From a virus (Duplodnaviria > Heunggongvirae > Uroviricota > Caudoviricetes): a stretch of DNA of 4,537 nt. How positions within the stretch are numbered: position 1 is the stretch's first letter; each line of letters opens with the position of its first letter. Shown here piece by piece: positions 1 through 4,537 of this stretch. The translations under genes were made by a program, and so were the position numbers. The DNA lies in the IMG/VR virus record IMGVR_UViG_2778261224_000010. One strand, given 5' to 3'. The notes below the pieces were generated by a model. The model was not told where the DNA came from. It made no database searches and saw only the letters and a list, made by a program, of their open reading frames with translations.

Positions 1-1719
1 CAAAGCGAGAGCGCGGCAGCCGGTTCTGCGACTTCAGCAGCTGGATCAGCAACTGCTGCGGCTAACAGCCAGAAAGCAGCGAAGACGAGTGAAACTAACG
101 CAAAGTCCAGCCAGACGGCAGCGAAGACCAGCGAAACGAATGCTAAAGCCAGCGAAACTGCGGCGAAAAGCAGTCAGGATGCAGCAGCTGAAAGCGAGAG
201 TGCCGCAGCTGGTTCTGCAAGTGCGGCGGCTGCTTCTGCCACTGCATCAGCAAACAGTCAAAAAGCTGCAAAAACCAGTGAAACCAATGCAAAGACAAGC
301 GAGACTGCAGCGGCGAACTCGGCGCAAGCATCGGCAGCAAGCCAGACAGCAGCTAAAGCAAGTGAGGATGCAGCCAGAGAGTATGCAAGCCAGGCTGCGG
401 AGCCGTATAAACAAGTATTGCAGCCGCTTCCTGATGTGTGGATACCATTTAACGATTCACTGGATATGATTACGGGGTTTTCGCCATCATATAAAAAGAT
501 TGTTATTGGTGATGATGAAATAACGATGCCTGGCGACAAGGTTGTTAAGTTTAAACGCGCATCGAAAGCAACCTATATTAATAAATCTGGTGTGCTGACA
601 GAGGCTGCCATTGACGAGCCACGATTTGAACGTGATGGCCTGCTTATTGAGGGACAAAGAACGAACTTCTTCCAGAACAGTACAGACCCTTCGAAGTGGA
701 ATAAGTCAACTTCACTGGACGTTACAGAAACAGGCACAGATAGTTTCGGTTTTAATTATGGCCGGTTTGTCGTACAGGATTCGATTGTTGGCACAAGTAA
801 AGCGCATACCATTATAGGGCTGTATTCAAGTACCGGAGGGGTTGATACTTCAGGTGACGAAAAGTATGTAACTATATCCTGCCGGGTAAAAAGTGAAGTT
901 GATAATATCGCCGTTCGTATTTTATTTGAACATTATGATGGGGAAGTAAGGACATCAATAGGAACAGCAAGCCTGAACCTTACCACCCGCATAATTAGCA
1001 AGACGGGTCAGACAAGCCGTGTTACAGCAAGGTCTGTTAAGGATGATGCAACTGGCTGGATATTTTTTGAGGCTACATTAAAAGCAGATACAACAGAAAA
1101 TACGGTTGGTGGTTTCGTCCAGTATTCTCCGGATACAGGGCAGATGGTGGCATCAGGGGATTGTCTCGATGTAACCACTCCACAGATTGAGGCTGGTACA
1201 GGCGCATCATCTTTTATTGTTACGGGGGCGGCACCGGTAACGCGGGCAAGCGATATAGTTACAGTCCCAATTAAGAATAATCTTTATAATCTTCCTTTTA
1301 CGGTTCTTTGTGAGGTACATAAGAACTGGTATAAAACGCCAAATGCAGCACCGCGTGTTTTTGATACCGGCGGTCATCAAACCGGAGCGGCTATCATTCT
1401 TGGCTTCTGTTCTTCAGCAGATTACGACGGATTTCCTTGTTGCGATATTGGTGGGTCTAACAGACGGATAAACGAAAATGCATCACTTGAAAAAATGGTT
1501 ATGGGGATGCGTGTAAAGTCTGATCAGTCTACATGCGCAGTAAGTAACGGGCGTATATCCAGCGAAACAAAAACCACATGGTCATATATTCAGAACTCCG
1601 CAATTATCCGTATTGGAGGCCAGACTACAGCCGGTTTACGCCATTTATTTGGTCATATCAGGAATTTCAGAATATGGCACAAGGCATTGACTGATGCTCA
1701 GATGGGGGAGTCAATCTAA
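1..1719 (+). CDS. Side tail fiber protein, C-terminal portion (5' end lies upstream of the window)
   Basis: Frame 1 is open from base 1 to TAA at 1717-1719 and translates as QSESAAAGSATSAAGSATAAANSQKAAKTSETNAKSSQTAAKTSETNAK..., the Ala/Ser/Thr/Lys-rich repeat typical of lambdoid side tail fibers as I recall them. The listed ORF 418..1719 is in the same frame, so its Met is internal. The C-terminal ~430 aa is a globular, beta-rich distal domain ending in a LamG/ConA-like motif (FRIWHKALTDAQM). Confidence 0.88.
   Translation, partial: QSESAAAGSATSAAGSATAAANSQKAAKTSETNAKSSQTAAKTSETNAKASETAAKSSQDAAAESESAAAGSASAAAASATASANSQKAAKTSETNAKTSETAAANSAQASAASQTAAKASEDAAREYASQAAEPYKQVLQPLPDVWIPFNDSLDMITGFSPSYKKIVIGDDEITMPGDKVVKFKRASKATYINKSGVLTEAAIDEPRFERDGLLIEGQRTNFFQNSTDPSKWNKSTSLDVTETGTDSFGFNYGRFVVQDSIVGTSKAHTIIGLYSSTGGVDTSGDEKYVTISCRVKSEVDNIAVRILFEHYDGEVRTSIGTASLNLTTRIISKTGQTSRVTARSVKDDATGWIFFEATLKADTTENTVGGFVQYSPDTGQMVASGDCLDVTTPQIEAGTGASSFIVTGAAPVTRASDIVTVPIKNNLYNLPFTVLCEVHKNWYKTPNAAPRVFDTGGHQTGAAIILGFCSSADYDGFPCCDIGGSNRRINENASLEKMVMGMRVKSDQSTCAVSNGRISSETKTTWSYIQNSAIIRIGGQTTAGLRHLFGHIRNFRIWHKALTDAQMGESI
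4..294. repeat. Two imperfect direct repeats of about 100 bp (4-105 and 193-294, offset 189 bp = 63 codons) inside the tail fiber gene
   Basis: Copy 1 encodes SESAAAGSATSAAGSATAAANSQKAAKTSETNAK and copy 2 SESAAAGSASAAAASATASANSQKAAKTSETNAK. Shorter KTSETNAK units recur at about 82-105, 121-144 and 271-294. DNA identity is roughly 70 percent by eye. Confidence 0.7.
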
Positions 1720-2000
1720 TGAAAGATTTAACACTCAAATTTGCAGACAGGGCCGACTTTTCGGCCTTTATGGATAGCACTGGCTATTATGATGACGAGT
1801 CGATGCAGGATGATATTCTTATTGACGTGATAGGTAACGTGTACAAAGAAACCGGAGAACTGACTGAAGATGGCGAACCGGTATGTGTTAAGGAAGACGG
1901 ATATTTTGTAAACGTGCGCATCATTAATGATTCGCAAATATCGTCATTATTCGATGAATACGCGGTTGCTGTTGAGCATCAACTTCGTGGCTGGATGTGA
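1719..2000 (+). CDS. Hypothetical small acidic protein (93 aa), translationally coupled to the tail fiber gene
   Basis: ATG at 1719-1721 overlaps the tail fiber stop (TAATG). Shine-Dalgarno GGGGGAG at 1704-1710, 8 nt upstream. About 21 Asp/Glu against 7 Lys/Arg, so strongly acidic. I do not recognise the family. Confidence 0.7.
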   Translation: MKDLTLKFADRADFSAFMDSTGYYDDESMQDDILIDVIGNVYKETGELTEDGEPVCVKEDGYFVNVRIINDSQISSLFDEYAVAVEHQLRGWM

Positions 2001-2009
2001 GGAAGGAAA

Positions 2010-2714
2010 ATGGCTACATCGACAGTAATTCCAGGAGACATCACCACGTTAAAGGGAGATGTCAGTAAAGCCAAGGAAGATATTTCCTCAATTAACGGAA
2101 AAGTATCAACGCTTCAGACTGAGATGACCAGTGCAAAGCAGGATATCAGCTCCAGATACACAAAAACTGAAGTTGATAATAAGCTGAAAAACAAAGTGGA
2201 AGTGAACGATCTGGAAAGTGGTCGTTATGGCGGAGATTTTTATCCACTGACAGGTCGTGAAGCGTTTTATTTATGGAATTTGGCCACGACTACAGCGGCG
2301 GCAAACCTTTATCTTAATCCTGACCCTGCAATTTCGTCTGTACTGCGGTCAACATCGTCTATCCGCTATAAGCATTCAGTAGAGACGATAGATTCAGAGC
2401 ACGCCGATCTCATTTTCAAGATGCGCCCTGTGTGGTACAGGTCGCAATGCGAAAATGACAGGCGTGACTGGGGATTCTACGGATTGATTGCCGAGGAAGT
2501 AGGAGAAATTGCCCCTCAGTTTGTACACTGGCGACCAGCTAACGAGAATGATGCTCCTGAAGCTATTTCCAGCAATGGCCTTGTTGCCGAAGGTGTAATG
2601 TACGAACGTCTGGTTGTTCCACTGATTCACCATATCCAGAAACTGACTGAAAGAGTTGATGAACTTGAGTCAGAATTAAAGTTGTTATCAACTTCCCGAA
2701 GCGATATCGGATAA
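2010..2714 (+). CDS. Tail-fiber-like protein: N-terminal coiled coil plus C-terminal intramolecular chaperone (peptidase S74-like, self-cleaving) domain
   Basis: ATG at 2010 with GAGGAAGGA (1999-2007) just upstream. Residues 10-70 are heptad-like (DITTLKGDVSKAKEDISSINGKVSTLQTEM...). The C-terminal half matches the endosialidase-chaperone pattern recalled from memory: S116-S-I-R-Y-K121 (Ser...Lys with conserved Arg, about 2355-2372), GLIAEEVGEIAPQFV, and a terminal helix YERLVVPLIHHIQKLTERVDELESEL. Confidence 0.8.
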   Translation: MATSTVIPGDITTLKGDVSKAKEDISSINGKVSTLQTEMTSAKQDISSRYTKTEVDNKLKNKVEVNDLESGRYGGDFYPLTGREAFYLWNLATTTAAANLYLNPDPAISSVLRSTSSIRYKHSVETIDSEHADLIFKMRPVWYRSQCENDRRDWGFYGLIAEEVGEIAPQFVHWRPANENDAPEAISSNGLVAEGVMYERLVVPLIHHIQKLTERVDELESELKLLSTSRSDIG

Positions 2715-2724
2715 AGGAGGAGTA

Positions 2725-3012
2725 ATGGATATAACACCTTTCCTTCATGCACTTTGTGCTGTGGCTGCACAGGTACTGGTTGGTCTTTTTACCGGAAACT
2801 GGGCTTACGGTGCGATAGCTGGTTGTACGTTCTTCATCGCTCGTGAACATACCCAGGCAGAATATCGCTGGATTGAAATGTTCGGGCATGGCAAGCGTAT
2901 GAATATGCCGTGGTGGGGCGGTTTTGATCCACGCGCGTGGGATGTGGCAAGCCTGATGGATTTTGCTGTGCCGGTGGTGCCGTGTCTGCTGATCTGGATG
3001 TTGATCCGTTAA
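2725..3012 (+). CDS. Hypothetical small membrane protein (95 aa, 2-3 predicted transmembrane segments)
   Basis: Strong Shine-Dalgarno AAGGAGGAG (2714-2722) 4 nt before ATG at 2725. Hydrophobic stretches PFLHALCAVAAQVLVGLF, AYGAIAGCTFFIA and ASLMDFAVPVVPCLLIWMLI, with a Trp-rich segment MPWWGGFDPRAW between them. Last gene of the + strand cluster. No recognisable family. Confidence 0.7.
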   Translation: MDITPFLHALCAVAAQVLVGLFTGNWAYGAIAGCTFFIAREHTQAEYRWIEMFGHGKRMNMPWWGGFDPRAWDVASLMDFAVPVVPCLLIWMLIR

Positions 3013-3028
3013 ATATAAAAAGTAAAAA

Positions 3029-3062
3029 GCCGCAGTAACTTGTCATGATAGGATACTGCGGC
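3029..3062 (-). terminator. Rho-independent terminator candidate for the minus-strand int/dinI unit (weaker bidirectional function possible)
   Basis: Perfect 9-bp inverted repeat GCCGCAGTA (3029-3037) / TACTGCGGC (3054-3062) with a 16-nt loop. On the - strand the stem is followed by TTTTTACTTTTTATATTT. On the + strand no good U-tract follows. It lies between the convergent gene ends at 3012 and 3130. Confidence 0.55.
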
Positions 3063-3129
3063 TGGCTGGTTAACTTTCGATAGTGCGAGTATTGAATGAT
3101 TTCCAGCCGTTACTGATTTTACGTGCTAA

Positions 3130-3378
3130 TTAGTGAACAAACCACTCGTCAGCAGACTCCCAGGTATCTTTCAGAGTTTCCTGAACAAAAGTTTTAGCTG
3201 AATCTTTATCGGCGGTGCGCGTAACAGAAAGGCCATCGTTGCTGGTGGCTTTTACGATCACCTCTACATCGTCATAACGTTTACTGATGCGTCGGGTTAA
3301 TTCTTCCTTTAACGCATCCACAGCACCGTTTGGCATTTTAGTCATTTTTTCTTTGGCTATGCAGATCTCAATACGCAT
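3130..3378 (-). CDS. dinI: DinI-family (DNA-damage-inducible protein I-like) protein, 82 aa
   Basis: Translation [35 protein letters not shown]...[33 protein letters not shown] shares the MRIE..IAK..GA(I/V)DAL..EL(S/T)RRI..LSV..ETWESAD(D/E)WFV signature of E. coli DinI as I recall it. Shine-Dalgarno AGAGGGA (complement of about 3383-3389) upstream of ATG at 3376-3378. Two LexA boxes lie immediately upstream. Confidence 0.88.
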
Positions 3379-3413: not shown

Positions 3414-3443
3414 ATTTTTAACTGTATGGATAAACAGTGTCAA
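3414..3443 (-). promoter_or_regulatory. Candidate sigma70 promoter of the dinI-like gene
   Basis: On the - strand, TTGACA (complement of 3438-3443, overlapping the int stop codon at 3440-3442) is followed 17 nt later by TAAAAA(T) (complement of 3414-3420). The -35 is perfect, the -10 imperfect. LexA box 2 occupies the spacer and box 1 the start/leader region. Confidence 0.5.
3420..3439 (-). promoter_or_regulatory. LexA (SOS) box 2, within the promoter spacer
   Basis: AACTGTATGGATAAACAGTG: CTGT (3422-3425), 8 nt, ACAG (3434-3437). It lies 12 nt from box 1 and falls between the candidate -35 and -10 elements. Confidence 0.75.
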
Positions 3444-4537
3444 GAGGTCTTATTTCTGCTCCTTTGGAGCTCTTCAAAACGATTATGTAAAGATTTCGGA
3501 TACAGTTCGGTATATACCTGCCATAGCACGTTTAATGAACGATGCCCTGTAACCTGAGCGACTTCCTCAATACTAAAACCAGCCTCAAATAAGCGACTTG
3601 CCCCTTCTCTACGCAAATCATGGTATCGCAGATCTTTAATACCTAATTTGCTTCTTACCCTCTGAAATCCTGCAGTAACAGAAGTGCTGTTATATGGAAA
3701 AATGAATTCCGATTTTTTGGGCTGTCGTTGGACGATATCCCAGGCTTCCCCAAGCAAGGCTACTTTCATGTGGTTGCCTTCCTTTTTGCGTGGATCTTTC
3801 CTGTCTCTTACGAGTATAGATTTTTGTTCCTGGTCGAGATCTTCCCATCGTAACCGGCATACTTCTCCGATCCGCATACAGGACCACACAGAAAATTTGA
3901 GGATATCAACGAACGGAATTTTTGAGCATTTATGAGTAGATCGTTGTTGAAGGCCTTCAATGAGCATGTCCAGTTCATCAGATGCTGGTCTACGATTACG
4001 ACGGTTTGATTTACCAATCAAACCAAGTTTAAGTAGATATGGGCGAGCGCTTTTCGCCGGGTTTGATGTGTAATTAATTCCGTATACAGGTTTGGCCGCA
4101 TCCAGAACACTGCCAAGATAACTAACATCGTGGCTGACTGTTGCTGGACCTGCACCAGCGTTGTTTCTTAGCCTGCAATGTTCAATTACGTCATTTTCTG
4201 TCAGTTCAGATAGTTTGATCGCGGAGATGTCACTATCCATAAGCAGTTCCAGCACATATCTTTTAGTACGGCCTGCTTTACCTCCGGCATTTGGGTCATT
4301 TAAATATTTGTGTAGTAAGTCACGGACTGTAAGTCCGTCAACTGCATTTGATGATGGAATGCCATATAGATCTAATTCCATCACTTTCTGTGTTCCCCAT
4401 GTTTTGGCATGAGCATGTTTAGGGAATGTTTTGCTTTCCCTGTAAGTGATAACACCTTTTTCTTTGATAATCACATTACAGCGATAGCGTGGTGTGCCAT
4501 CGGATTTTAGTCGTTTCTCTATGTTATAGTACGCCAT
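3440..4537 (-). CDS. int: Phage tyrosine-type integrase (site-specific recombinase)
   Basis: 365-aa ORF from ATG at 4535-4537 (at the window edge, so the true N-terminus could lie further out) to TGA at 3440-3442. The C-terminal catalytic domain carries the tyrosine recombinase residues: Arg in SCMRIGEVCRLRWEDLD, H-x-x-R in LRYHDLRREGASRLF, and His/Tyr in GHRSLNVLWQVY. Confidence 0.9.
   Translation of the reverse strand: MAYYNIEKRLKSDGTPRYRCNVIIKEKGVITYRESKTFPKHAHAKTWGTQKVMELDLYGIPSSNAVDGLTVRDLLHKYLNDPNAGGKAGRTKRYVLELLMDSDISAIKLSELTENDVIEHCRLRNNAGAGPATVSHDVSYLGSVLDAAKPVYGINYTSNPAKSARPYLLKLGLIGKSNRRNRRPASDELDMLIEGLQQRSTHKCSKIPFVDILKFSVWSCMRIGEVCRLRWEDLDQEQKSILVRDRKDPRKKEGNHMKVALLGEAWDIVQRQPKKSEFIFPYNSTSVTAGFQRVRSKLGIKDLRYHDLRREGASRLFEAGFSIEEVAQVTGHRSLNVLWQVYTELYPKSLHNRFEELQRSRNKTS

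Follow-up and report, generated by a model that had tools for sequence, protein, structure and literature searches.

A C-terminal LamG-like module in the two-cassette head of a side tail fiber from a lambdoid Escherichia coli prophage

The 4,537-nucleotide stretch of viral DNA studied here (IMG/VR record IMGVR_UViG_2778261224_000010, below called the window) is the right arm of a lambdoid Escherichia coli prophage. Its first 1719 nucleotides encode the C-terminal 572 residues of a side (lateral) tail fiber, and the last ~160 residues of this fiber take a LamG/concanavalin-A (ConA)-like jelly-roll fold. This module is the end of a larger head of ~430 residues (nucleotides 418-1716), which consists of a neck, a jelly roll resembling a carbohydrate-binding module (CBM) and then the LamG/ConA-like jelly roll. 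The fiber is an ordinary yet poorly annotated host-recognition protein of a common E. coli lambdoid prophage, and taken as a whole we consider it fairly probable that its two-cassette head acts as a surface-glycan adhesin.

Reading frame 1 has no stop codon from nucleotide 1 up to the stop at 1717-1719. The window edge thus truncates the fiber gene, and the TTG at 418, from which an earlier reading of the sequence alone (the sequence-only reading) had started the fiber gene as an open reading frame (ORF) at 418..1719, is not a start codon. PHROG 1419 ("tail protein") covers the 572-residue translation end to end (1e-293). The nearest proteins come from E. coli prophages, are mostly 590-730 residues long and show 86-98% identity across the last 433 residues; they carry names such as "prophage tail fiber N-terminal domain-containing" or "phage head spike fiber domain-containing". 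The PF08400 N-terminal domain is found in most full-length relatives of at least ~590 residues, the exception being a class of ~598 residues with no Pfam hit on record. Related phages have the fiber gene behind J and lom, annotated there as the side tail fiber Stf. As the 5' end of the gene is outside the window, the first part seen is an Ala/Ser-rich repeat shaft (1..417, + strand, as are all parts of the fiber described below), with 51 Ala and 27 Ser in 139 residues and with tandem repeats of a 42-nucleotide (14-residue) unit at 66-167. This stretch is matched by PHROG tail-fiber families.

The LamG/ConA-like beta-sandwich at the C-terminus occupies positions 1237..1716. Its variable body (~1258-1647) is followed by a conserved C-terminal strand and short helix, FGHIRNFRIWHKALTDAQMGESI (1648..1716), the motif in which the sequence-only reading had seen a LamG signature. 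The frame-1 translation ends in ...QTTAGLRHLFGHIRNFRIWHKALTDAQMGESI*, and the 28-residue peptide GLRHLFGHIRNFRIWHKALTDAQMGESI, encoded by nucleotides 1633-1716, is the true C-terminus of the protein. The resemblance of this end to LamG domains is beyond chance. Laminin_G_3 (PF13385) aligns its positions 103-149 of 151 to residues 520-567 of the window fiber (nucleotides 1558-1701) with an E-value of 0.0021 and 18.7 bits, under the gathering cut-off of 27.6 bits, and the isolated LamG domain scores 18.3 bits. Taken from a single sequence, such a match would be a weak lead only, and it is the profile of the whole family together with the structure that backs it.

When the last 168 residues were searched exhaustively, 103 representatives reached E <= 1e-3. 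Coverage is 140 or more of the 168 residues in 66 of them, and in 61 of these 66 the module lies at the extreme C-terminus. Alignment A1 contains 52 of the LamG-module representatives and the window, with 21-88% identity to the window. When the 53 sequences of A1 are scanned singly, 44 match Laminin_G_3 at E <= 0.01, the best at 4.6e-13. The few remaining Pfam matches fall within this superfamily (Pentaxin, the clostridial toxin receptor-binding N-domain, the sialidase N-terminal lectin domain), save for one to Adeno_shaft. Searched against the PDB sequences, the A1 profile finds a LamG-type S-layer domain first (4qvs, E 3.3e-6, profile positions 19-171), and further matches include the GPR126 pentraxin domain, Limulus SAP, CRP, CBM40 sialidase lectins, BoNT/D HCN and neurexin LNS.

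The structural evidence agrees. With A1 as input, AlphaFold2 confidently predicts an all-beta structure of 11 strands plus a C-terminal helix (predicted local distance difference test, pLDDT, 87.7; predicted template modelling score, pTM, 0.82), and the same fold recurs in a model of the head. Foldseek with the LamG model returns 166 matches in the PDB at E <= 1e-3, led by ConA-like/LamG sandwiches; the best 50 of the 166 have a probability of 1.00 and query-normalised template modelling (TM) scores of 0.47-0.71 (best 0.6-0.7). Among the matches listed are the PAPP-A LG domain, CRP, SAP, the ADGRG4 PTX-like domain, the SHBG LG domains, CBM40 and BoNT HCN. In the viral structure library BFVD, close tail-fiber relatives are followed by proteins described as "LamG-like jellyroll" or "ConA-like". 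In the models the C-terminal motif forms a strand at residues 412-420 and a helix at 426-431 of the 433-residue head unit, and it aligns with the C-terminal signature of Laminin_G_3 and with that of 4qvs. The assignment of the LamG fold stands because profile and structural similarity were both found, the former by Laminin_G_3 and the A1 profile, the latter by AlphaFold2 and Foldseek; the sequence-only reading had named the lack of such similarity as a ground for rejecting its proposal. The interval it had given to the lectin end, 1450-1719, takes in only the C-terminal half of the domain, which in fact extends over about 1237-1716.

The whole 433-residue head is predicted as a single compact body (pLDDT 93.6, pTM 0.89). 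It starts with a conserved neck (PLPDVWIPFNDSL ... RASxATYInKSGvL..A..dEPRFE..GLLIEGQrTN; 418..687) of low column entropy, modelled as short strands with a pLDDT of 83-97. This is followed by a CenC-type CBM-like jelly-roll domain (643..1248), whose hypervariable body spans ~688-1167 and which corresponds to the NCBIfam family GTA_spike_fiber (NF048003, residues 215-416, 67.5 bits against a curated cut-off of 36). A conserved linker, ASSFIv.....TRAsD (1168..1257), leads on to the LamG module; the R and D of its TRAxD motif are invariant or nearly so in A1, and the motif also aligns with residues 257-282 of the RcGTA fiber. The sequence-only reading had the lectin tip joined directly to the Ala-rich shaft. 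This does not hold, as ~270 residues lie between the two, made up of the ~90-residue neck and the ~170-residue CBM-like domain.

A profile of the CBM-like region (A3) was used to search the PDB. It matches the RcGTA head spike fiber Rcc01080 (E 5e-33, chain residues 45-262), the Pa193 gp46 / E217 gp45 baseplate wedge subunit (1.2e-14, chain residues ~200-385) and a "CBM-cenC domain-containing protein" (1e-5), and more weakly the CBM4/22 modules of xylanases (E 0.05-0.3). Among 34 A3 members scanned against Pfam, two match CBM_4_9, the best at 6e-6. No hydrolase or depolymerase family was matched anywhere in the head in the Pfam, PHROG and NCBIfam scans, including those of the A1 and A3 members.

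Several apparent leads on these domains were discarded. The CBM-like and LamG domains are not treated as paralogues, since hhalign finds only 8 residues, which overlap by construction. PDB entry 6tb9 does not provide a solved fold of the RcGTA fiber, as only residues 2-10 are built. The top Foldseek matches 9b45 and 8env are called tail fibers in the entry titles, but the matching chain of 500-503 residues is in fact a subunit of the baseplate wedge, and it superposes poorly. Likewise, the "tail fiber protein gp17" of 9occ is the distal tail protein of Shigella phage Sf11, and the matching part is unmodelled. As a separate observation, the A3 profile matches the C-terminal appendage of this Sf11 protein (9occ_C residues 186-383, E 2.6e-11), which has been described as of unknown function (PMC12724387); the match suggests that the appendage may be a glycan-binding decoration.

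The head is a mosaic of conserved and variable segments. Variability was measured region by region, as identity relative to the window, on 52 diverse relatives spanning the whole head (alignment A2); an earlier measure on the 120 nearest alleles was set aside, as it is biased by hit ranking. Mean identity is 54% in the neck (unit residues 1-90), 21% in the CBM-like body (91-250), 50% in the linker (251-280), 28% in the LamG body (281-410) and 63%, the highest value in the head, in the C-terminal strand-helix (411-433). Column entropy follows the same regional pattern.

The two bodies do not vary together. In two relatives (P0122 and P0123) the LamG body is 92-93% identical to the window and the CBM body merely 46-54%, while in a third (P0133) the neck is 87% identical, the CBM body 49% and the LamG body 45%. 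The same is seen in DNA. IdasGreatGrand is 89% identical to the window at nucleotides 64-708 and 92% at 1612-3122, and between 708 and 1612 the sole alignable stretch is 1013-1374, at 67% identity. PhiR55_1 is 96% identical from nucleotide 1989 onward and ~65% in the sole alignable stretch of the distal fiber. This shows that two hypervariable domain bodies, bracketed by three conserved segments, are swapped independently between phages. The modular exchange of the distal fiber that the sequence-only reading had tied to host-range switching is borne out; the junctions lie elsewhere, and there are two cassettes instead of one. Among the long relatives of 1423-1503 residues, some (P0175, P0176, P0182, P0194 and P0212) contain two tandem CBM-like plus LamG units in one polypeptide.

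The module is widespread. A tblastn search finds it in 205 phage records, nearly full length in 197, and where these records are annotated it lies inside genes called tail, tail fiber, side tail fiber or lateral tail fiber. Carriers include lambdoid phages, Dhillonvirus (KarlBarth), Tequintavirus (AKFV33, SP15, mar004NP2), Vequintavirus (CarlMeissner, EmilHeitz) and JenP1. By megablast, 1581 of 5426 complete E. coli genomes contain parts of nucleotides 418-1719; coverage is at least 80% in 296 of these 1581, and at best 97%. Two records from outside this host range, MG065635.1 (Campylobacter phage C12) and OR849447.1 (Listeria phage LM 4-14-1), have an E. coli-type module at 52-81% identity. 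The former, at 137.6 kb, has the size and the fiber of an rV5-like coliphage, so that host mislabelling or contamination seems likely for this "Campylobacter" record.

What does the head bind? The best reading is that of a glycan adhesin, because its domains belong to fold families rich in carbohydrate binders, a homologue binds capsule, the allelic diversity resembles that of O-antigens and no hydrolase is matched. The homologue is the RcGTA head spike fiber, for which binding to capsular polysaccharide is experimental (PMC10218006, PMC7296036), and the lateral fibers of the phage groups that bear the module are held to target O-antigen (PMC8594841, PMC11990801, PMC10743462). AKFV33, whose ORF137 is homologous to the window fiber, is a phage specific for O157:H7 (PMC3326045), which also speaks for such a target. 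By analogy, sugar binding by the head is plausible. A polysaccharide receptor (O-antigen or lipopolysaccharide (LPS) core), as the sequence-only reading had proposed, would fit everything seen, judging from the fold and from the biology of related phages.

Most likely, the head is a multivalent adhesin that works without enzymatic activity and whose target is a variable surface glycan, probably O-antigen. Its binding would be reversible and would bring the central J fiber near its outer-membrane receptor. The LamG module would be kept on the mature fiber, either as a second glycan-binding site or as a partner that modulates the specificity of the CBM-like domain. Presumably, the three conserved segments allow recombination to exchange either body separately, also between quite different phage lineages. 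The LamG module is not singled out here as the receptor-binding tip, because the CBM-like body is more variable and is homologous to a capsule binder; the CBM-like domain is at least as good a candidate for receptor binding.

Four points weigh against a glycan-binding LamG module or head. Structural neighbours of the module include binders of proteins (neurexin LNS) and of steroids (SHBG), and one for which no ligand is known (BoNT HCN). In the A1 family no conserved acidic or Ca2+-site-like cluster stands out; the positions that are invariant or nearly so belong to the linker and C-terminal motifs. Capsule is bound by the RcGTA homologue although it has no LamG module, so that glycan binding may not need the LamG part. 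Finally, the O157:H7 specificity of AKFV33 (PMC3326045), which carries a homologous fiber, ORF137, is a trait of the phage and is not mapped to ORF137.

The genes directly downstream bear on the strongest alternative. The first (1719..2000, + strand) encodes a 93-residue acidic protein (isoelectric point 4.05) that matches PHROG 1361, a family of unknown function (phrog_1361, 1.5e-45), and has no Pfam or NCBIfam match. Its start ATG overlaps the fiber stop (TAATG at 1717-1721), and it is co-inherited with the LamG-ended fiber. A homologue lies directly 3' of the LamG-ended fiber in all six loci examined (L001-L006, E 1e-7 to 8e-58), which span four lineages: lambdoid, Tequintavirus, Vequintavirus and Dhillonvirus. 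From this context the protein could be a dedicated chaperone or adaptor.

The next gene (2010..2714, + strand) encodes a second, short fiber protein of 234 residues. It opens with the conserved motif MATSTVIPGDITTLK, continues with a coiled-coil-like stretch and has a C-terminal intramolecular chaperone domain of the Peptidase_S74 type (~2355-2525; PF13884 at residues 116-172, 27.5 bits, cut-off 22). Its C-terminus resembles the T5 L-shaped tail fiber chain 8hqz_d (E 1e-5). The N-terminal motif is exact in the second fibers of PhiR55_1, IdasGreatGrand and mar004NP2, and close variants occur in KarlBarth and in AKFV33 ORF135. A second fiber gene starting with M[AV]T[SK]TVIP.DIT.LK or a close variant comes next in five of the six loci; in the Vequintavirus locus the small ORF is present and the next gene is without the motif. 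Self-cleavage of the 234-residue protein would leave a mature part of only ~115 residues, unusually little for a receptor-binding fiber. No Tfa gene is found among the downstream ORFs, which match PHROG 1361 and the S74-domain fiber.

This arrangement allows for a different role of the LamG module, mainly that of a structural cap or docking platform, with receptor binding left to the CBM-like domain and the second fiber. The conserved strand-helix, neck and linker would then hold the 93-residue protein, the N-terminal peptide of the second fiber, or both, and form a branched fiber. The overlapping small ORF, its conservation in all six loci and the second fiber gene that mostly follows it are in line with this, as is phage DT57C, where genetics point to a branched fiber whose LtfB joins the virion through LtfA by its N-terminal ~45 residues (PMC4728585, PMC10713586). 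The conservation of the C-terminal motif, the highest in the head, and the capsule binding of the RcGTA fiber, which has no LamG module, point the same way. However, the putative docking region for LtfB in DT57C is in the middle of LtfA and not at its C-terminus, and the Vequintavirus locus lacks the second-fiber motif despite having the small ORF. We rate a mainly structural role as unlikely, though worth keeping in mind, because the LamG body itself is hypervariable; both this and its independent swapping are unexpected for a pure scaffold.

A wider proposal of the same tentative standing is that the head, the 93-residue protein and the second fiber constitute one mobile branching-hub cassette that moves between siphovirus and myovirus lineages. 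Here, conserved faces of the neck, the linker and the LamG strand-helix may dock the second fiber, possibly through the small protein. If this were true, one lateral fiber would display up to three independently exchangeable receptor-binding modules.

It is less probable still that the head, or the LamG module, recognises an outer-membrane protein, as reported for the Ur-lambda side tail fiber and OmpC. LamG/LNS domains of neurexin and laminin do bind proteins, BoNT receptor-binding domains are among the structural neighbours, and binding of OmpC by lambda Stf has been reported (cited in PMC12312913, PMC11990801). However, the window fiber has a tip with no relation to that of the lambda/T4 gp37 type, and it is not followed by a gene for the Tfa chaperone. 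Next to the module lies a domain from carbohydrate-binding families and from the family of the capsule-binding RcGTA fiber, and the extreme allelic diversity fits the diversity of glycans better than that of conserved porins. Newer work suggests that even Ur-lambda Stf engages the O16 O-antigen.

That the C-terminal module is an intramolecular assembly chaperone, cleaved off after trimerisation like the S74 domains of T5 pb1 and of endosialidases and absent from the virion, is very improbable: many fibers, including the second fiber of this locus, do end in such domains, but the LamG-ended fiber and its module have no match to PF13884 (S74) and the fold is ConA-like, and AKFV33 ORF137 was identified in virions by mass spectrometry at 95.8 kDa (PMC3326045), compared with a predicted mass of 83.1 kDa at full length and 65.3 kDa without the last 160 residues, which together with the missing S74 match argues against a cleaved domain.

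The remainder of the window lies outside the fiber genes. A 95-residue hydrophobic protein (2725-3012; PHROG 1443, unknown function) is encoded between the fiber cassette and dinI and is 99% identical in PhiR55_1. From its sequence it looks membrane-embedded, and it is possibly a moron or superinfection-exclusion gene. The dinI gene (3130-3378, - strand; PF06183, 1.2e-19) and a tyrosine integrase gene (3440-4537, - strand; PF00589), which has its ATG in the final three bases of the window, show that the fiber cassette adjoins the attachment-site end of the prophage. The segment from dinI to the integrase gene is 98-99% identical in mEp460, a Stx2k phage and others, where other fiber genes accompany it.

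LamG-like jellyroll domains in phage adhesins and the GTA_spike_fiber domain are already known. Added here are a below-threshold LamG domain in a very common fiber family of E. coli prophages, the two-cassette architecture and the conserved three-gene context; for this fiber family, literature searches turned up no specific account of a LamG module and no assigned receptor. Current annotation misses the LamG module because it falls below the Pfam cut-off, and names the N-terminal or "head spike fiber" domain alone. This is a biologically expected kind of adhesin and holds no new principle, and its use is in annotation and host-range engineering. The two separately exchangeable cassettes and the three conserved segments provide concrete junctions for engineering the host range of lambda- or T5-based delivery particles, and the architecture of the head offers a framework for predicting the O-serotype of the host from prophage fiber alleles.

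Among known systems, the closest counterpart in T5-like phages is AKFV33 LtpA/ORF137, which is 35% identical to the window fiber (window residues 2-572 to 198-784, E 5e-91) and likewise has a CBM-like plus LamG head. It is followed by the same small ORF and by a second fiber with the conserved N-terminal motif, as in the window. The two differ at the N-terminus, which in AKFV33 fits the T5 collar, while the full-length relatives of the window fiber carry PF08400 for the lambdoid tail tip, and in the length of the second fiber (557 residues in AKFV33 against 234 in the window). AKFV33 is cited as a phage with two ltf genes like DT57C, whose LtfA and LtfB, according to genetics, each recognise a different O-antigen (PMC4728585, PMC10713586). 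DT57C LtfA seems to carry a different C-terminal receptor domain from that of the window fiber. It was rejected as a direct homologue of the LamG end, as its C-terminus resembles that of LtfB; the proper T5-like counterpart is AKFV33 ORF137. By gene content, the window locus is of the predicted two-gene branched lateral fiber type (LtfA/LtfB; AKFV33, DT57C, phiEco32), since its first fiber is homologous to ORF137 and its second fiber bears the N-terminal motif.

The lambda and Gifsy-1 Stf proteins share with the window fiber the genomic position (J - lom - stf), the presumed role as accessory adhesin and, with its full-length relatives, the kind of N-terminal attachment domain. However, they end in a T4 gp37-like tip that needs the Tfa chaperone, whereas the window fiber has the CBM-like plus LamG head and no tfa; the two marks of a lambda-type Stf, the gp37-like tip and a downstream tfa, are both absent from it. 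Gifsy-1 Stf binds a sugar of the LPS core (PMC12312913). It was considered as a functional proxy and rejected, being of the lambda/gp37 type and ~50% identical to Ur-lambda Stf.

At the level of single domains, RcGTA Rcc01080 is homologous to the window fiber from the neck through the CBM-like domain up to the TRAxD linker, after which only ~39 residues follow and no LamG module. It is a single chain on the capsid vertices, unlike the tail fiber shaft of the window, and only its residues 2-10 are resolved experimentally. Pa193 gp46 / E217 gp45 is the only experimentally solved copy of the CBM-like domain. Foldseek with the whole head also ranks it first (E 2.2e-6), with a poor superposition (TM 0.37, root-mean-square deviation 14 A), and Pa193 gp46 is a baseplate protein with a fiber attachment loop (PMC11456595), in contrast to the fiber of the window. 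The LamG/Laminin_G_3 domains of pentraxins, CBM40, PAPP-A, SHBG and BoNT HCN, finally, have the fold and the C-terminal strand-helix signature in common with the window module, while these structural neighbours are merely 10-18% identical to it in sequence.

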